Sequence record: NC_008515.1
Direction: 5' to 3' (one strand)
From: Escherichia phage RB32
DNA: 64,000 nucleotides
The position numbers and the translations under genes are program-made. Positions 13,424-51,879 of the stretch are shown here, piece after piece. Below the pieces are notes generated by a model that saw nothing but the letters and a program-made list of their open reading frames with translations, had not been told where the DNA came from and made no database searches. The first letter of the stretch is position 1. The number at the start of each line of letters is the position of its first letter.

Positions 13424-13627
13424 TCACGATTTATCCCCATAGATGTCTCTCATCAATTTAAGCGCTGAGCGTTCTAGTTTCTTTTCTTTCTCAGCACTAA
13501 TCATTGATTTCATCCATTCTTCTGATTCGTTCTGCATTTCTTTATTTGCTTGTTCAACCCAACCATCGTCAATGTACATTGAGTTTGGTCTATTGAACCA
13601 TTCAAACATTTTCTTCAGAACTTTCAT
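13424..13627 (-). CDS. hypothetical small protein
   Basis: 67-aa ORF; its first 21 codons lie inside copy 1 of the 91-bp tandem repeat. Confidence 0.5.
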
Positions 13628-13745
13628 TTGTTTTACCTAAAACAACAGTAGGAGCATCGTCAATGTACATTGAGTTTGGTCTATTGAACCATTCAAACAT
13701 TTTCTTCAGAACTTTCATTTGTTTTACCTAAAACAACAGTAGGAG
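13564..13745. repeat. perfect tandem duplication, 2 x 91 bp
   Basis: 13564..13654 is identical to 13655..13745 (catcgtcaatgtacattgagtttggtctattgaacc...aacagtaggag). Confidence 0.85.
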
Positions 13746-16982: not shown

Positions 16983-17147
16983 TTACTCTTCTTTTTCTTT
17001 AGATTCCTCTTTTTTCTTTTTAGGAATCTGTTCAGGACCTTTATTTACTACAGCGCCTGATGTTGTTCCAGTAGAGATATTTTCAGGACTACCACCTGAA
17101 TCTCCAGCGACCATATCTTCTTTGATAAATTCTTTATATGTTTTCAT
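16983..17147 (-). CDS. small Lys/Glu-rich protein with capsid-targeting-like N-terminus, below ORF-track cutoff
   Basis: 54-codon ORF read by hand: MKTYKEFIKEDMVAGDSGGSPENISTGTTSGAVVNKGPEQIPKKKKEESKEKEE; GAGG 7 nt upstream; 2 nt before gp61 ATG. Confidence 0.4.
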   Translation of the reverse strand: MKTYKEFIKEDMVAGDSGGSPENISTGTTSGAVVNKGPEQIPKKKKEESKEKEE

Positions 17148-17192
17148 ATTAACCTCTATTCATAAAAGCATTAAAAATTTGGTCATCAATAG
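17145..17192. repeat. 48-bp direct repeat, copy A (3' end of the 118-aa gene plus RBS/ATG of the next gene)
   Basis: catattaacctctattcataaaagcattaaaaatttggtcatcaatag; copy B at 17503..17550 differs at one position. Confidence 0.8.
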
Positions 17193-17505
17193 ATGGCGCA
17201 GTAATATTTTCTGCATCATTTAGCAAATCATTAATTTCATCAGATAGCATAACACATGTACCTTTATTTCCTGTAATTGTTACTGCGCAATTACGAACGT
17301 TTTCTTTATTAAATTTTAGGTTAATATTTTCGTAATGAAAATCCTTTAATGCTGAATATATTTTTAAAATAAAATTGTCTTTTACTACAATAAACCCAAC
17401 CTCACTATTAAAACGTGGTTCATGGAAACTGTAATAAACCTTTTCATCTATAAAATCGTATGAAATTTTTTCCATTTTTAAATATGAAAATTCAGAACTA
17501 TACAT
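17149..17505 (-). CDS. hypothetical protein; C-terminal 14 aa shared with the upstream gene
   Basis: 118-aa ORF ending SIDDQIFNAFMNRG; flanked by the two 48-bp repeat copies. Confidence 0.55.
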   Translation of the reverse strand: MYSSEFSYLKMEKISYDFIDEKVYYSFHEPRFNSEVGFIVVKDNFILKIYSALKDFHYENINLKFNKENVRNCAVTITGNKGTCVMLSDEINDLLNDAENITAPSIDDQIFNAFMNRG

Positions 17506-17550
17506 ATTAACCTTTATTCATAAAAGCATTAAAAATTTGGTCATCAATAG
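17503..17550. repeat. 48-bp direct repeat, copy B
   Basis: catattaacctttattcataaaagcattaaaaatttggtcatcaatag. Confidence 0.8.
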
Positions 17551-18127
17551 AAACATTTACTTTAGACTGTTTTTCTGATGGTAATTCATATCCACATATT
17601 ACAATTTTGTGATCAATATCAAAATACACAGAAGCAATATGATTAATGATGTTTTCAGTAAAGTCTAAATCAACATCAATATCTTTTTGACCACAGCCCA
17701 AAGGATAAATAATGCGAGTAATTCGATTATCTTTAACAAATATTCCACCGACATACTCTGTGCTGCGTTTAAAGTCTACACGCCGACGAAATGAAAAATA
17801 TTCAGGCTCTCTATGAGCTCGGCTCATAGGACACAACGAGTAACTAGAATAAGAGATGTCAAATCCTACGCCTTCGATATGAGCCAAAGTGTCATGATTA
17901 AACCAATTATAATCGTACGCCAAATCCATTAGATTATAATATGTAAAAGGCACCGGATTAACATCATTAGTCACAAGCATGTAATTAGCAACTGCTATAA
18001 TTTCATTGTTTTTAACGAATACAAACCGTGATTGATGCGAATGACCTGGACCCGCGTTTTCACGATTAATGATATAACACTGAGACTTTTTATATTTGTA
18101 AGAATCATACTTATACATTTGAAACAT
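17507..18127 (-). CDS. hypothetical protein (61.2-like position)
   Basis: 206-aa ORF ending VSIDDQIFNAFMNKG. Confidence 0.55.
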   Translation of the reverse strand: MFQMYKYDSYKYKKSQCYIINRENAGPGHSHQSRFVFVKNNEIIAVANYMLVTNDVNPVPFTYYNLMDLAYDYNWFNHDTLAHIEGVGFDISYSSYSLCPMSRAHREPEYFSFRRRVDFKRSTEYVGGIFVKDNRITRIIYPLGCGQKDIDVDLDFTENIINHIASVYFDIDHKIVICGYELPSEKQSKVNVSIDDQIFNAFMNKG

Positions 18128-24010: not shown

Positions 24011-24403
24011 TCACTTAGTCAAATTTTTTACACATGAATTATAAGAATTCACTACATACTCCATCGGAGCATTTTTACCTGTACGCCATTGGTAATTATT
24101 AGCCCAATTTGCCCAAAGTTCTGCGCAGTAGTTTTCAATTTTTTCTTCGCGTGTAATTACATCCGAATTACGATATGCTTGAGCAGATTCATCTGGACGA
24201 ATAGCTTCGTCAAAATTCGCCTGCATTTGTTCTACTGTTTGCTTTGAAGCTTCTTTATAACACTTGACATTAGGATTATAAAATTTGCTTGAACAGTTTA
24301 CAATTTTTCCTGCATCAGACTGATTTACTACCGGTCCTTGAGCTACACAACCAGTAAGACCTAATGCAATAACCAAAATAGCGATTTTCATTTCATTCTC
24401 CAA
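24011..24403 (-). CDS. putative lipoprotein (imm.1 position)
   Basis: 130-aa ORF, signal peptide with LTGC lipobox. Confidence 0.6.
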   Translation of the reverse strand: MENEMKIAILVIALGLTGCVAQGPVVNQSDAGKIVNCSSKFYNPNVKCYKEASKQTVEQMQANFDEAIRPDESAQAYRNSDVITREEKIENYCAELWANWANNYQWRTGKNAPMEYVVNSYNSCVKNLTK

Positions 24404-24425
24404 ATCCGTATTAGTTGATAGTTGT

Positions 24426-24455
24426 ATAGTACCATGGAAGAACAGTCTTGTAAAC
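24426..24455 (-). promoter_or_regulatory. early promoter (-35 TTTACA, 17-bp spacer, -10 TACTAT) with conserved leader
   Basis: minus strand GTTTACAagactgttcttccatggTACTATacaactatcaact...ggagaatgaaATG. Confidence 0.45.
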
Positions 24456-39919: not shown

Positions 39920-40390
39920 TTAATCATGTTTCCACACCCCATCGGTATTTGACCAAAGCCGCTGATTATCTGATCCTCGCCACAGCTTTTTGGTCGGAAG
40001 ATTTTTCTCATACTTCCCATCAATAATAACATCAACATATTTAAGCATTTCTAGTTGTTTAATATCTTCAAACTTATATCCTGTCCACAACCAAATGCTT
40101 TTATTGGGATAAAGATTTTTTACTGTTTGAACAATGCAATGAATAACATCTCGGTTATCAGGATAGAGAGGGTCACCTCCAGTTATAGTCAATCCTTCTA
40201 TATAATCATTATTCAAACATTCAATTAATTGCTCTAGTGTTTCACCAGTGAATGGAATACCATTTCTAGCATTCCATGTTGATTTATTATAACACCCTTC
40301 ACATTTATGCAAACAACCTGTAACGAAAAGAACGGTCCTGCAGCCAGGACCATTAATAAAATCGCAAGGATAAAATCTATCATAATTCAT
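39920..40390 (-). CDS. nrdG: anaerobic ribonucleotide reductase activating enzyme (radical SAM)
   Basis: 156-aa ORF with CLHKCEGC (CxxxCxxC). Confidence 0.9.
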   Translation of the reverse strand: MNYDRFYPCDFINGPGCRTVLFVTGCLHKCEGCYNKSTWNARNGIPFTGETLEQLIECLNNDYIEGLTITGGDPLYPDNRDVIHCIVQTVKNLYPNKSIWLWTGYKFEDIKQLEMLKYVDVIIDGKYEKNLPTKKLWRGSDNQRLWSNTDGVWKHD

Positions 40391-42204
40391 TGGTGTTTAA
40401 CCCTATGCATGATTTCTTTATTTTTGCCGAGATTAAATCCGCGTTCGTTCGGATTTCCCAAATAACCACACGTTCTTCTTATTGTGTTCATCTTTTTAGG
40501 ATCAGTTTCTCCACAAATAGAACAAACAAATCCGTTTTCAGTAGGAGTCATTTCATGGGTACTTCCGCATGTAAAACACTTATCTACTGGCATATTAACA
40601 CCAAAATAATCTAAATGTTGTGCAGCATAATCCCATACAGCCTCAAGACCTTTTAGGTTATTTTTCATATCAGGAAGTTCAACATAAGAAATGTGACCAC
40701 CTGTCGCAATGAAATGATATGGCGCTTCACGAGAAATCTTTTCAAACGGAGTAACATTTTCTTCTACTGAAACGTGGAAACTGTTAGTGTACCAGCCTTT
40801 ATCGGTAACATCTTTTACGCTTCCATATTTTTCTGTATCAAGTTTACAGAAGCGATAACAAAGGTTTTCAGCAGGAGTCGAATACAAACTAAAAGCAAAC
40901 CCAGTTCTTTCAGTCCACTGTTTAAGATGAGCATTCATTTTAGTTAAAATTTCTCGTCCAATATCACGACCGACAAGAATATTCAATTCGTGAATACCAA
41001 TGTATCCTAGGGACACTGAACTTCTACCGTTTTTAAATAACTCAATTATGTCGTCATCAGGTTTAAGACGAACCCCGAATGCACCTTCTTGGTAAAGAAT
41101 AGGAGCAACAGTAGCTTTAACTCCTTTTAAGGAACTAATTCTACACATCAAAGCTTCAAAACACAAATCCATACGTTCATTGAATAATTCAACAAATTTC
41201 TGTTCGTTAAATTGTGTTCCAATATAAGAATCTAATGCAATGCGAGGAAGATTCAGTGTTACAACACCAAGATTATTACGTCCATCAAGAATTTCATTAC
41301 CAGTCGAATCTTTCCATACGCTCAAGAAACTACGGCAACCCATTGGAGAAACAGGAATAGATGAACCGGTGATAGCTTTATTATTCTTAACTGAAATAAT
41401 ATCAGGATACATCCTTTTGCTTGCACACTCTAGAGCAAGCTGCTTAATATCATAGTTCGGATCGTCTTTATAAAGATTAACGCCTTCTTCAACGAACATA
41501 ACAAGTTTAGGAAAAATAGGAGTTATCCCATCACGACCAAGACCTTTAATACGATTTTTCAAAATTGCTTTCTGAATCATTCGTTCAGTCCAGTCAGTTC
41601 CCGTACCAAATGTAATTGTTACAAAAGGAGTCTGTCCGTTTGAACTAAAGAGAGTATTTACTTCATATTCATAAGCTTGGAATGCATCGTATACGTCTTT
41701 TTCTGTTTTAGATTGGGCATAATTCAGTGCATCGGCGATTTGCCATTTTTCTGCGTCCTCGATATGTTTTGCATAGGTGCGTTTAACATAAGGAGAAAGT
41801 ACTTTATCTACATTCGCAAAAGTCGTTCCGCCGTATTGGTGAGAAGCAACCTGTGCGGTAATTTGTGCCATAATTGCAGTAGCAACGCCAATTGATTTAG
41901 GAGTTTCAATCTGCGCATTACCAAGCTTAAATCCGTTCTCAAGCATTCCTTTTAAATCTACTAAACAACAATTAGTAAATGGAAGAGCAGGGGAATAATC
42001 AATATCATGAAAATGAATAATTCCGCTTTCATGCGCTTTCATAATAAAAGACGGGACCTTATTTTTGGCAATGTGTTTAGACACAATACCAGCCATAAGG
42101 TCCCGTTGAGTTGGAAAAACACGAGAATCTTTATTAGCATTCTCGTTTAAAAGGTCTTTATTAGTTTTATGAATCAATCCTTCAATTTCTTTTTCAATTG
42201 TCAT
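40387..42204 (-). CDS. nrdD: anaerobic ribonucleoside-triphosphate reductase (intronless)
   Basis: 605-aa continuous ORF; C-terminal zinc site CFTCGS...CSICG and glycyl-radical motif RRTCGYLG. Confidence 0.9.
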   Translation of the reverse strand: MTIEKEIEGLIHKTNKDLLNENANKDSRVFPTQRDLMAGIVSKHIAKNKVPSFIMKAHESGIIHFHDIDYSPALPFTNCCLVDLKGMLENGFKLGNAQIETPKSIGVATAIMAQITAQVASHQYGGTTFANVDKVLSPYVKRTYAKHIEDAEKWQIADALNYAQSKTEKDVYDAFQAYEYEVNTLFSSNGQTPFVTITFGTGTDWTERMIQKAILKNRIKGLGRDGITPIFPKLVMFVEEGVNLYKDDPNYDIKQLALECASKRMYPDIISVKNNKAITGSSIPVSPMGCRSFLSVWKDSTGNEILDGRNNLGVVTLNLPRIALDSYIGTQFNEQKFVELFNERMDLCFEALMCRISSLKGVKATVAPILYQEGAFGVRLKPDDDIIELFKNGRSSVSLGYIGIHELNILVGRDIGREILTKMNAHLKQWTERTGFAFSLYSTPAENLCYRFCKLDTEKYGSVKDVTDKGWYTNSFHVSVEENVTPFEKISREAPYHFIATGGHISYVELPDMKNNLKGLEAVWDYAAQHLDYFGVNMPVDKCFTCGSTHEMTPTENGFVCSICGETDPKKMNTIRRTCGYLGNPNERGFNLGKNKEIMHRVKHQ

Positions 42205-42674
42205 TTTAAACTCTTTCTAAGCTGCTTCTTAAATGAAGCTATTAATTGTGTTTTGGTGTCAGATTCATTATATTCAAATCCTCTTTGAAGCATCTCGGCC
42301 ATCATTTCCTCTTTTCCTAAACGAGAAAATTCCTTTGATTTATCTCCAACAAAGTTAGGGTGAATATTATTTTGGGTGTAATCGGATTTTAAATAAGTAA
42401 GTAAATTTTCTAACCATTCAAGATAATCAACACCTTGTCCCTTTAAGCCAGAACGATTAAATTTATGCTTCATTTGACCTTCTGCGGCATTGCATAGATT
42501 ACAAAGCAATCCACGTACCTTTCCTGCTTTTGGTCCATTTAATTCATGGTCATGATCAAGATGATTAGCTTGAACATCAGGATTTAGTTCTCGTTGGCAA
42601 ATTAAGCATTTACCGTTTTGTGCATTATAAAATTTCTGTTTTTCTTCTTTGTATAATTTGCCAGTCAATAACAT
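42201..42674 (-). CDS. 49: endonuclease VII (Holliday junction resolvase)
   Basis: 157-aa ORF MLLTGKLYKEEKQKFY...CLICQ...CNLCN matches T4 gp49 as recalled. Confidence 0.9.
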   Translation of the reverse strand: MLLTGKLYKEEKQKFYNAQNGKCLICQRELNPDVQANHLDHDHELNGPKAGKVRGLLCNLCNAAEGQMKHKFNRSGLKGQGVDYLEWLENLLTYLKSDYTQNNIHPNFVGDKSKEFSRLGKEEMMAEMLQRGFEYNESDTKTQLIASFKKQLRKSLK

Positions 42675-42716
42675 AATAAAACCCTTACCTTAAATAGATA
42701 AGGGTATTTATTATTT

Positions 42717-42893
42717 TTAAGTATTGTAAAACATTCGATGCAATCGTTTATACTGTCGAATCATCTTTTTAGTAGGACGAGAATAGGTTCCTACGCAAGT
42801 GGTCATATGAGGGTCCGTAGAATGTCCTTTAATAAAAAGTTTCCAAACCTTACCGCCATTTAACTTTTCAGTATAAACCAATTCGGTTTTCAT
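42717..42893 (-). CDS. small protein whose C-terminal 15 aa duplicate the Pin C-terminus, below ORF-track cutoff
   Basis: 58-codon ORF read by hand (MKTELVYTEKLNGGKVWKLFIKGHSTDPHMTTCVGTYSRPTKKMIRQYKRLHRMFYNT); AGGA RBS. Confidence 0.4.
   Translation of the reverse strand: MKTELVYTEKLNGGKVWKLFIKGHSTDPHMTTCVGTYSRPTKKMIRQYKRLHRMFYNT
42719..42764. repeat. diverged copy of the pin 3' end (R1)
   Basis: 46 bp, 5 mismatches versus 42932..42977. Confidence 0.7.
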
Positions 42894-42904
42894 TAAAATG
42901 TCCT

Positions 42905-42927
42905 GTCAGAAAAAGAATTTTGAGTTT
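42905..42927. repeat. 23-bp exact direct repeat (R2) of pin-internal sequence at 42981..43003
   Basis: gtcagaaaaagaattttgagttt present twice. Confidence 0.8.
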
Positions 42928-42929
42928 TT

Positions 42930-43415
42930 TCAAGTATTATAAAACATTTGATGCAATCGCTTATATTGCCGAATCATTTGGTCAGAAAAAGAATTTTGAG
43001 TTTCAAGCCATTCAATATATTCTGCCGCAGCTTGCATCAGGTTACCTTCATAGCCATCGTTATTTTCTTGCGCAGCTAATTTAGCTAATGCGTATGAAAT
43101 ACGTTCACCTTGAAAAGAGGCTTCAGGCTTCTGAACAACTTGATTAGTTCGCTCTACAACTTCTTCAATTTCGCCATTTTCAACGGATTCAGTATTCCAC
43201 AAGCACCAATACGTAATTGGCTTATCATAGATATTAATAATCTTTCCACCAGAAAGTTCAATTTCAATAATTCCAGTATCAGGCTCTATATCATCTTCAC
43301 ATTCTTTTGTAAGTTCACGAACTTTAAAGACAGTACCTGCACTAAGTTCCGGCCAGTAATTACACAGCCCTGTATCAGCACGATTAATTCTAAACCACTT
43401 ATCTACTGTAATCAT
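42930..43415 (-). CDS. pin: protease inhibitor Pin (position and size)
   Basis: ORF track 42930..43433 (TTG-initiated); first ATG gives MITVDKWFRIN..., 161 aa as T4 Pin. Confidence 0.6.
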   Translation of the reverse strand: MITVDKWFRINRADTGLCNYWPELSAGTVFKVRELTKECEDDIEPDTGIIEIELSGGKIINIYDKPITYWCLWNTESVENGEIEEVVERTNQVVQKPEASFQGERISYALAKLAAQENNDGYEGNLMQAAAEYIEWLETQNSFSDQMIRQYKRLHQMFYNT

Positions 43416-43537
43416 GTCCCATCTCCATATCAATTAAGTCATTTATCGTTGGTTCATTATATACTGTTTCTTCATCAGTGTAAACCGGTTCTTCCGGCTC
43501 TGGCTCTACAGTTTCCCATCTAGCCGCCCACCAGGGT

Positions 43538-49157: not shown

Positions 49158-49685
49158 TTATGCGAGTACCGTCTTTAACCGTTCTTCAAACTTCCGAAGA
49201 GTATTCTGGCGTTCAGCTCTTTGCTTTTTGTAAGTTTCAATACGCTCTGAAATGAGAGTGTATCGTTCATTTACTGATTCTTTCATAAAATCAGGAATTT
49301 CACGAGAAGCTTTAATCTCATCAAATTTATCAATAACAACTTGCTCTTCAGCAATTAAGTTATCATACATTAAAATATCTTTCTTGATGAACTCAATATC
49401 TTCTTGAGTTACACGAGATAATTTAGATGCTTTATCCTTTTTGTACTGTTCATTAGTATCACGAGACCAGTGTAATGTACGATTTTTATTCGTATTCTTG
49501 TAAATTTCTACAATACCAATCTCATCGATAATAACGATCCAATTCCAACGGGATTTGTAAATTTGTCCTCCATCAACCGTGATTTCACCTCCAATTGAGA
49601 TGTCATTAAAGAACTTGCTTTGTGCTTCAGATTTAAATTTACCATCGTTGTAATTTACCAGGTTGAAAATATCTTTAGCGTTCAT
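49158..49685 (-). CDS. hypothetical protein
   Basis: 175-aa ORF, first gene after early promoter 49714..49743. Confidence 0.55.
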   Translation of the reverse strand: MNAKDIFNLVNYNDGKFKSEAQSKFFNDISIGGEITVDGGQIYKSRWNWIVIIDEIGIVEIYKNTNKNRTLHWSRDTNEQYKKDKASKLSRVTQEDIEFIKKDILMYDNLIAEEQVVIDKFDEIKASREIPDFMKESVNERYTLISERIETYKKQRAERQNTLRKFEERLKTVLA

Positions 49686-49713
49686 TTTGTGTTCCTCCGT
49701 AGTTGATAGTTGT

Positions 49714-49743
49714 ATAGTACCACAGAGGAACAGTCTTGTAAAC
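49714..49743 (-). promoter_or_regulatory. early promoter (-35 TTTACA, -10 TACTAT) with conserved leader
   Basis: minus strand GTTTACAagactgttcctctgtggTACTATacaactatcaact. Confidence 0.45.
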
Positions 49744-50850: not shown

Positions 50851-51827
50851 TTTAATAATACCGTTTCAGCGATTTCTTCCCAACCGTTTTTGTCGGTCAT
50901 AATAAAGTCAGCAAGATAAAGAGCAGTACGCAGTGAAACATTGCGTAAACGATTAACATTGACTTTCATCCATGATAATGCTTTATAAGTTTCTTCATCA
51001 GAAAGACCGCGCTTTTGCATCATGTCGGTTGAAAGAATAACATCTTCAACCCTGACCATAATTTCTTCATTAGTGTGAACACCCAAATCCAAATAAACCG
51101 AGCGGGACACTAATGCTTGTAAATGTGGAGCAAGTTTAGTACCACGGTCTAATTCGCGGTCAATGTCAACGTTTGTGATAAAAACAATCGTTCCTTTAAA
51201 TTCAAACTCACGCTCAATGCCTTTTTCTTCTAAGTAAGAAGATGCAGTGCTCCAGCAGACTTTACGGGTCTCTCCAGTGTCCAGAGCAGCTTTCAGAAGA
51301 TTAAGAATGTCCATATCAGAGAAAACATCCACATCATCAATCAAAAGGACAGAATTCTCTTCACGATTATTCCAAAGCTGCTCATAAAGACCAATACCAG
51401 AGATTTTACCATTAATGCTTTTATATTCAATGTATCCAATATCATTTGCTTTATTTAAAGCTTTATCTAAAGAATATGTTTTACCTATACCTGCCGCACC
51501 AGAGATAATTAATGAACGAATGTTTCCGTTAATAATACCATTCGTCATCATTCCCATAACATTAAATCTTTTATTAATGCGGGTTTTCATATCTTCATAT
51601 GATTCTTTAACTTCTTCAACTTTTACACCATCATATGAAATGTCTGATTTGTAAACCCAAACACCGCGACGCTTACCGTCAATTTCAACAAAAACTTTAC
51701 CATCTCCTTGTGCATCTACCGGAGCATTATCTGGGAACCATTCACCTAAGAGCTCAAAAGTTCCAGAGATTTCTTTACCAAAGTAGATACCCTTATTGAT
51801 AGTTACAGTTTTCATTTTATTCTCCAA
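50847..51827 (-). CDS. P-loop ATPase (AAA-like)
   Basis: 326-aa ORF; Walker A GAAGIGKT, Walker B LLIDDVD; ATGA overlap with the GIY-YIG gene. Confidence 0.65.
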   Translation of the reverse strand: MENKMKTVTINKGIYFGKEISGTFELLGEWFPDNAPVDAQGDGKVFVEIDGKRRGVWVYKSDISYDGVKVEEVKESYEDMKTRINKRFNVMGMMTNGIINGNIRSLIISGAAGIGKTYSLDKALNKANDIGYIEYKSINGKISGIGLYEQLWNNREENSVLLIDDVDVFSDMDILNLLKAALDTGETRKVCWSTASSYLEEKGIEREFEFKGTIVFITNVDIDRELDRGTKLAPHLQALVSRSVYLDLGVHTNEEIMVRVEDVILSTDMMQKRGLSDEETYKALSWMKVNVNRLRNVSLRTALYLADFIMTDKNGWEEIAETVLLK

Positions 51828-51849
51828 ATCCGTATCAGTTGATAGTTGT

Positions 51850-51879
51850 ATAGTACCATAAAGCTTTATGCTTGTAAAC
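51850..51879 (-). promoter_or_regulatory. early promoter (-35 TTTACA, -10 TACTAT) with conserved leader
   Basis: minus strand GTTTACAagcataaagctttatggTACTATacaactatcaactgatacggatttggagaataaaATG. Confidence 0.45.

Follow-up and report, generated by a model that had tools for sequence, protein, structure and literature searches.

The 64,000-nucleotide stretch of Escherichia phage RB32 analysed here (NC_008515.1; the window) carries pin, the gene of the Lon protease inhibitor PinA, and next to it a 58-codon open reading frame (ORF58) whose protein ends almost exactly as Pin does. The best explanation of this locus as a whole, to which we give a probability of roughly 85%, is that the shared ending is the native tail of ORF58, which belongs to the DUF7279 family, that pin captured this tail, and that the fused and the intact alleles now stand in tandem. 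Judged from sequence comparison, the 161-residue Pin of T4-type phages is a chimera, with residues 147–161 derived from the neighbouring DUF7279 gene. The rearrangement consists of ordinary events, namely a deletion fusion and a tandem junction at minimal homology, and involves no new mechanism or system. The origin of the PinA C-terminus has apparently not been described before: within an incomplete coverage of the literature, no description was found of DUF7279, of the origin of the PinA tail, or of a fusion or duplication between pin and gene 49.

Enterobacteria phage RB33 (KM607001.1, species Tequatrovirus RB32) matches this region of the window at 100% identity, and the name RB33 is used below. 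The RB33 record annotates on the minus strand nrdD, gene 49 (endonuclease VII), the hypothetical protein RB33_080, pin (RB33_081), 49.1 and nrdC; RB33_080 is ORF58. All features of the locus described below lie on the minus strand. Pin (42930–43415) has 161 residues and ends ..DQMIRQYKRLHQMFYNT, while ORF58 (42717–42893) starts with ATG and ends ..KKMIRQYKRLHRMFYNT, and the two C-termini are identical at 14 of 15 residues. At the DNA level there are two repeats. A 23-bp piece (A), GTCAGAAAAAGAATTTTGAGTTT, occurs exactly at 42905–42927 and 42981–43003 and nowhere else in the window, with 0.00 matches expected from dinucleotide-preserving shuffles. A 46-bp piece is found at 42719–42764 (B') and 42932–42977 (B), with 41/46 bases matching and 5 mismatches; in 30 shuffles of the 3-kb region, the best pair of 46-mers reached 27–30/46. 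An earlier note, made from this sequence alone, had described both repeats and the likeness of the two C-termini, and these observations hold in full.

The second copy is not contiguous: A lies in the spacer between pin and ORF58, whereas B' forms the end of ORF58 itself. Read along the coding strand, the order is pin[..A-CAA-B-TGA]-AAA-A-AGGACATTTTA-ATG[X, 43 codons]-B'-TAA, after which come a hairpin and gene 49. The copies of A are 76 nt apart and those of B 213 nt apart, with the join at ACTTGAAA|AAACTC. These are two direct copies of one ancestral segment, head to tail, and thus a tandem segmental duplication, in which the two units are different alleles: one has a 137-nt deletion and the other does not.

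ORF58 is a real gene, small and conserved among phages. It matches the Pfam family DUF7279 (PF23945) with 62.7 bits against a cut-off of 24.5 (E 3e-17), residues 7–56 covering profile positions 1–53 of 53, and it matches phrog_3272 (E 3.4e-34) with residues 1–58 on positions 1–58 of 59, tail included. A tblastn search finds full-length homologues in 411 phage records, at identities from 100% to about 36%. Pairwise ratios of nonsynonymous to synonymous substitution (dN/dS) within the family are 0.08–0.31, at synonymous divergences (dS) of up to >1, indicating purifying selection on ORF58. Across genera, conservation in DUF7279 is highest in its C-terminal motif, RPTKxxIRxxKRxHRxFYN. The 43 N-terminal residues, which the earlier note took for an unrelated addition, are instead the conserved body of the DUF7279 domain: they are found across genera, down to 39–42% identity. 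The comparison of T4-like phages proposed in that note has in this way found both ORF58 and its N-terminal part to be conserved, in addition to the recurrence of the repeat junction considered below. A search of 1.8 billion representative proteins with the DUF7279 profile gave 9 matches, of which the short ones alone are true members, and the family therefore appears, on sequence grounds, to be confined to T4-like phages.

The position of the gene is also conserved. A DUF7279 gene immediately precedes the gene 49 hairpin in NBG2, G50, RZ, CLB_P2, ST0, phiE142, p000y and loci L009–L014 and L016. In Gaprivervirus and Dhakavirus it precedes gene 49 in all loci examined save L015, in which DUF7279 is followed by a 324-residue reading frame. 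The family is also present where pin is absent. The Mosigvirus phages ST0 and phiE142 have the order 49.1, DUF7279, gene 49, with no pin, and the Gelderlandvirus S16, which also lacks pin, has a homologue after gene 49.1 that ends ..LTPRLIRRYKRINRLFNF, with other small reading frames and a homing endonuclease as the next genes. ORF58 resembles the DUF7279 proteins S16 gp48.1 and ST0 gp031 in matching the whole profile, in length (54–61 residues), in the basic C-terminal motif and in predicted fold. Its placement just upstream of gene 49 is like that of ST0 and phiE142; for S16, the comparison covered only sequence and fold. It differs from other DUF7279 loci in that a duplicated pin remnant lies ahead of the RB33 gene, and in that a second copy of its tail is fused to pin.

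The structural predictions agree with this assignment. The AlphaFold2 model of ORF58 (mean confidence, pLDDT, 81.6) has a β-β-β-α topology with the helix at residues 42–56, and the tail is accordingly predicted to be the C-terminal helix of a compact β3-α domain. A search of BFVD gave one significant match, an independent model of the S16 homologue (TM-score 0.75–0.80, E 1e-4); apart from this, only uncharacterised proteins were returned. A Foldseek search of the PDB with the ORF58 model gave nothing usable (best match E 0.27), and no relevant structure came out of sequence searches of the PDB, whether made with Pin or with the profile of DUF7279. A designed helical repeat protein that appeared in the PDB sequence search at E 0.004 was treated as spurious.

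Pin itself is a clear member of its family, but the family ends before the tail. RB33 Pin matches PF10465 (Inhibitor_I24) over residues 4–140 with 159 bits against a cut-off of 27, and phrog_2167 covers residues 1–146. The native part of the gene, codons 1–146, encodes the core of the Lon protease inhibitor and lies at 42978–43415. The C-terminal 15 residues, MIRQYKRLHQMFYNT, fall outside both models and are not part of the family domain; residues 146–161 match positions 43–58 of phrog_3272, that is, the C-terminal end of the other family. The captured copy (B) of the DUF7279 helix, codons 147–161 with the TGA stop, occupies 42930–42977, and the native copy (B'), codons 44–58 of ORF58, corresponds to the modelled helix and to the motif seen in pin-less genomes. 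In T4, PinA is reported to bind Lon and block degradation, and Lon inhibition has been demonstrated biochemically for T4 PinA only (PMC8835725 and references therein, citing Hilliard et al. and Skorupski et al.). T4 PinA (UniProt P07068; Inhibitor_I24) has the same 161-residue architecture as RB33 Pin, tail included, so that its residues 147–161 also come from the neighbouring DUF7279 gene, unlike the ends of the tail-less Pins of other lineages.

Tail-less Pins are in fact widespread, occurring in at least 70 Tequatrovirus genomes and in every other lineage examined. The tail is absent from Pins of 148, 136–138 and 142–144 residues. A 148-residue Pin ending ..SFSDRAF is found in vB_EcoM_NBG2, G50, NiC89, sb3 and, with a slightly different end, IME537, and in these phages the end of pin and the start of DUF7279 overlap in the sequence TAATG. 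In Mosigvirus the Pins end ..YLERRLS and in Gaprivervirus ..RFADKAF, while distant Pins (41–46% identity) have the endings ..SKSF, ..AKSF or ..DRGF; one of these distant proteins is encoded directly before gene 49 with no DUF7279 gene nearby. The native end of Pin is thus of the form ..(D/K)(R/K)x(F), and it is the ending of the T4 type that is derived. The main cluster of 161-residue proteins (P0020) shares 98% identity with RB33 Pin, and the 161-residue architecture is common to all six such clusters, with 657 member sequences.

The event that made the T4-type gene can be read from the junction. NBG2 reads ..TCTGACCGA GCATTTTAATG..(DUF7279 codons 2–43)..AAAAAG ATGATTCGG.., and T4 reads ..TCTGACCGA ATGATTCAG.., so that T4 GACCGA|ATGATT equals NBG2 GACCGA[137 nt]ATGATT, and T4 Pin is native Pin residues 1–146 followed by DUF7279 residues 44–58. 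In the ancestral layout, which NBG2-type phages still have, a 148-residue pin ending ..SFSDRAF overlaps the start of DUF7279 as TAATG, an arrangement that suggests translational coupling of the two genes. We propose that a single deletion of 137 nt removed the last two codons of pin, its stop and codons 1–43 of DUF7279, so that codons 44–58 of DUF7279 continue the pin frame directly after its codon 146 and give the 161-residue protein. The fusion junction exists in three states: CGA ATG (T4, T2), CAA ATG (KMB39, RB33) and CAA AAG (RB51, ESh28, SG1, L14, F1 and a ZN18-like locus). Since all fused Pins sampled have equal length and differ at the junction by single base changes only, the sequences point to one fusion event followed by point mutation. 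The captured tail may have evolved differently from its source. Fused tails carry 5 nonsynonymous and 1 synonymous substitutions against 4 and 10 in DUF7279 (Fisher p=0.05; p=0.19 for Tequatrovirus only), counted by eye over few haplotypes, which is suggestive of relaxed or changed constraint. In the AlphaFold2 model of Pin (mean pLDDT 68.5), the tail prolongs the last helix at low confidence (pLDDT about 46–53) and gives no pointer to a function.

Three layouts of this locus exist in Tequatrovirus. RB33 has the fused allele (A-B-stop), followed by an intact allele (A-X-B') that starts 23 nt before the old end of pin. The junction running from B through A to X is present in 112 independent phage records at 94–100% identity; they represent several species of Tequatrovirus, and their hosts belong to Escherichia, Shigella, Yersinia and Salmonella. 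The contiguous junction of the ancestral NBG2 type was found in 70 records. A near-identical 3' piece of pin occurs in 331 records, the remainder of which, roughly 150, are of the T4 type. IMG/VR returned 11 loci, too few to widen the Tequatrovirus diversity.

The remains of the intact allele can be followed base by base in RB33. The second copy of A (42905–42927) is a non-coding remnant of the pin 3' end that came with the intact allele, whereas the first copy (42981–43003) is still coding within pin (codons ..TQNSFSD). In NBG2-type phages the sequence of the second copy is still part of pin, directly upstream of the DUF7279 gene. In RB33 it is followed by AGGACATTTTA (42894–42904), which is the rest of the ancestral pin end (..D-R-A/T-F-stop with the TAATG overlap), read as GACCGAGCATTTTAATG in NBG2 and G50. 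This remnant (GAC AGG ACA TTT TAATG) no longer encodes protein and now provides the putative Shine-Dalgarno sequence and spacer of ORF58, the AGGA, read from the sequence, ending 7 nt before the ATG. Between B and A, at ACTTGAAA|AAACTC, is a run of A (42928–42930) whose length differs between phages, being 5 in F1, 6 in RB33, SG1 and the ZN18-like locus, and 11 in L14, as expected of a non-coding homopolymer. The exact breakpoint cannot be placed within this run.

As to how the two alleles came together, we infer that the simplest route has two events: the deletion, giving the T4 type, and then a join just after the stop codon of the fused gene to a position 23 nt before the end of an intact pin. 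The join would have been made at the A-run with a homology of at most 3 nt, most likely when a phage with the fused allele and one with the intact allele infected the same cell, by illegitimate recombination or by template switching. Several observations favour two parents. The junction state closest to the parental sequence (CGA ATG) is found only in the T4-type layout (T4, T2). RB33 B differs by 2 nt from B' of NBG2 and by 5 nt from its own B'. The second copy of A always has the sb3-like allele (AAAATTC), while the first is variable. Alleles of both ORF58 and pin differ within the RB33-type layout, SG1 for example carrying an ORF58 like that of IME537 and G50, and among the five RB33-type loci sampled the two A copies are exactly identical in RB33 alone. 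Because alleles are exchanged within the layout in this way, the divergence between the repeats cannot date the event, and its use in the earlier note as a sign of an older duplication is unsafe. The arrangement also predicts its own reversal: recombination between the A copies (a loss of 76 bp) would restore the NBG2 type, and recombination between B and B' (a loss of 213 bp) would give the T4 type. The operon that results would consist of an early promoter, the chimeric pin, remnant A with its Shine-Dalgarno sequence, DUF7279 and a terminator.

The opposite direction of transfer was the one drawn in the earlier note: the tail would be native to pin, and a new small gene would have formed when 43 unrelated codons became fused to a duplicated piece of the pin 3' end. 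Within RB33 alone the pattern is symmetric and can be read either way, and the reference protein, T4 Pin, does bear the tail. Once other phages are considered, this direction becomes very improbable. Tailed DUF7279 homologues are present in the pin-less genomes of ST0, phiE142 and S16, the tail lies inside the Pfam DUF7279 model and beyond the end of the PinA model and phrog_2167, the Pins of four other lineages do not have it, and the supposedly unrelated 43 residues are those conserved across genera. What stands of the earlier proposal is that the pin 3' end was duplicated by recombination and that the reading frame is real; the direction of transfer is reversed. It is more improbable still that ORF58 and its flanking repeats are a self-mobile cassette that duplicated its target, of the PeSL type or driven by a homing endonuclease. 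The region is hyperplastic in T4-like genomes, with a gene content between 49.1 and 49 that is highly variable among genera, which counts in favour of a cassette. Such cassettes are defined by flanking repeats made of a promoter and a hairpin, or by an encoded nuclease. The locus does not fit either definition: 42894–42929 contains no site resembling a promoter, stem-loop or terminator, there is no inverted repeat within A or B, and ORF58 has no nuclease or integrase signature in the profile, PADLOC or NCBIfam libraries. Moreover, two allelic forms of a single locus account for every base of the repeats, and DUF7279 occupies the same position in other genera without flanking repeats. An artefact, either an error in the RB33 assembly or a spurious reading frame in an AT-rich spacer, has nothing more in its favour than the small size of ORF58, and we regard it as next to impossible. 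The junction recurs in 112 independent records, so the duplication is not an assembly artefact, and the conservation, a dN/dS well below 1 and the Pfam match of ORF58 speak for a real gene.

A more serious alternative concerns only the order of events, and we consider it possible though unlikely. Here a single NBG2-type genome would have duplicated A-X-B' (213 nt) in tandem, and the first copy would have lost X to give the fused pin. The RB33 type would then be the intermediate, from which the T4 type arose by recombination between B and B' (the 213-bp loss), and from which the NBG2 type could be regenerated by recombination between the A copies (the 76-bp loss). This order has the attraction that both other layouts are obtainable from the RB33 type by simple recombination between direct repeats, and that DUF7279 function would be retained at every step; the two A copies of RB33 are identical, and the genome has another exact short tandem duplication, of 91 nt, at 13564–13745. 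Against it, three events are needed rather than two, CGA ATG is restricted to the T4-type layout while RB33-type phages have the derived CAA ATG or CAA AAG, and the repeats, with 5/46 differences between B and B' but 0/23 between the A copies, and with B nearer to B' of NBG2 (2 differences), look like two parental alleles. None of these points is decisive, since homologous recombination exchanges alleles. Capture of the DUF7279 tail by pin, followed by tandem assembly of two alleles, remains our preferred account, but some observations do weigh against it. The RB33 type could have arisen in a single genome, with the T4 type then derived from it, and the identical A copies of RB33 fit a recent intragenomic origin or gene conversion. 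There is no microhomology at the T4-type deletion junction that would point to a mechanism. The layout counts come from BLAST coverage and are approximate, about 20 Tequatrovirus loci having been read base by base. Expression of ORF58 in RB33-type phages is a prediction from consensus-level calls of promoter, Shine-Dalgarno sequence and terminator, and both structure and profile searches for the function of ORF58 yielded uncharacterised phage proteins only.

It is worth adding that the DUF7279 tail is a site of rearrangement elsewhere too, with a total of at least four independent junctions lying within or right after its roughly 50 nt. In the Mosigvirus phages of the mar005P1 type, pin and a second DUF7279 gene have been inserted inside the tail of the resident DUF7279, in an insert bounded by ACTTTTATA, so that pin is flanked by two DUF7279 copies (p000y, L006, 906–1680; JK36, L031, 606–1380; L017, 911–1677). 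Both flanks of the insert are identical to pin-less ST0, and in EP32a the second DUF7279 copy has since been lost. A further locus (L033; Logan SRR20302901, 1501–1926), represented by a single assembled contig, has an independent fusion of pin to the tail, ..YLERR|FHRDFYNVY, giving a protein of 141 residues by a deletion, relative to p000y, at a 6-nt microhomology, ACGTTT. In two ENA metagenome samples (L034 and L035, 1501–2076), loss of the stop codon that separated an upstream copy of DUF7279 from pin (..FYRGYD-MNISDTRGKWF..) has produced a read-through fusion of full-length DUF7279 and Pin of 191 residues (cluster P0046). By sequence, therefore, fusions of these two neighbours recur independently, in at least three ways: the T4-type capture, the Mosigvirus capture of L033 and the 191-residue fusion.

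In three Dhakavirus-like loci (L013, L014 and L016, 1029–1504) pin itself is reduced to a 57-residue gene corresponding to its C-terminal helical part, and the next gene, of 100 residues, has the motifs of the Pin N-domain (WPEL, FWCFW); the two halves are separate and in swapped order. Three others (L009, L011 and L012, at about 1056–1501) also have the 57-residue pin, but there the neighbour is an unrelated gene of 89–90 residues.

Short tandem duplications and deletions at minimal homology are familiar from work on rII in T-even phages. The RB33 arrangement is like these in having a head-to-tail junction at 0–3 nt of homology and direct repeats able to recombine out. It is unlike them in that the tandem units are different alleles, and in that it has become fixed in a large clade in nature and is no unstable variant of the laboratory. 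PeSL cassettes are said to underlie modular shuffling at conserved linkers in T4-type genomes, and the present breakpoints likewise fall repeatedly in a short conserved block. This block, however, consists of coding sequence and the gene 49 hairpin, and no promoter plus stem-loop flanks ORF58; the locus is not a PeSL-type or homing-endonuclease cassette.

The signals around the locus are consistent with joint expression of pin and ORF58. A promoter-like site of the sigma-70 type, TTTACA-17-TATAAT (11/12), lies inside 49.1 at 43456–43484, and NBG2 has an annotated promoter at the equivalent position; this site is likely to be the early promoter. Downstream of ORF58, at 42681–42705, there is a hairpin which the terminator scan identifies as a candidate terminator and which carries a terminator annotation in other records, with a late-promoter-like sequence, AATAAATA, just upstream. 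Given the promoter-like site in 49.1 and the terminator hairpin after ORF58, the two genes are probably expressed as one early transcript. The block made up of the late-promoter-like sequence, the hairpin and the start of gene 49 is near-identical in Tequatrovirus, Mosigvirus and Gaprivervirus loci; in the window, gene 49 (endonuclease VII), the downstream anchor of the locus by reading frame and annotation, extends over 42201–42674. RNA folding of the spacer between pin and gene 49 returned the known hairpin alone, and Rfam gave nothing above threshold. Two Rfam matches on the gene 49 hairpin (42670–42759, minus strand), ohsC_RNA at 26.5 bits and rnk_leader at 21.6 bits, are below the gathering score of 50 that applies to each, and were treated as chance matches caused by the hairpin. 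Searches with PADLOC and NCBIfam models gave no match to a known defence or anti-defence protein family.

Some other features of the window may be recorded here. The 91-nt duplication mentioned above is exact and in tandem (13564–13654 and 13655–13745), and is another recent short tandem duplication in this genome. There is also a dispersed direct repeat of 49 nt (17145–17193 and 17503–17551, 98% identical) and a dispersed family of 51-nt repeats (24385–24435, 51809–51859 and 49673–49723, 96% and 63% identical). The 51-nt repeats end ..GTTGATAGTTGTATAGTACCA, and on the minus strand they lead into a Shine-Dalgarno sequence and ATG. Both kinds of dispersed repeat may be shared leader or promoter-proximal blocks. 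The nrdD gene (40387–42204, minus strand) is uninterrupted and encodes 605 residues; in the T4 record, nrdD is put together from two segments on account of its intron.

Pin is strongly acidic (isoelectric point 4.3–4.5, net charge -13 to -16) and ORF58 very basic (10.2 and +8.7). Our best guess for DUF7279 is an early protein, small and basic, whose binding partner is either a nucleic acid or an acidic molecule. The contrast in charge (about -13 to -16 for Pin and +9 for DUF7279), the TAATG coupling and the repeated fusion raise the speculative idea that DUF7279 is a functional partner of Pin, and that the captured helix, basic and rich in aromatic residues, changed how Pin of the T4 type behaves, for instance in its binding of Lon or its resistance to it. 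We consider this improbable. If it were true, it would give a reason why RB33-type phages retain both a chimeric pin and an intact DUF7279 gene, and it would mean that all published biochemistry of PinA has been done on a natural chimera.

Several consequences follow for the T4-like phages. RB33_080 and the hundreds of homologues annotated as hypothetical proteins are one conserved family, whose Pin-like ending is their own, and the textbook T4 PinA of the Lon studies carries 15 C-terminal residues from another gene. The natural Pins without a tail, of 148 residues and shorter, are a ready-made test of how much the tail matters for Lon inhibition. More generally, deletions, fusions and cassette insertions in several T4-like genera have their breakpoints, time and again, in the stretch formed by the DUF7279 3' end and the hairpin of gene 49, and the locus is a small, well-documented example of how the plastic regions of T4-like genomes are remodelled.

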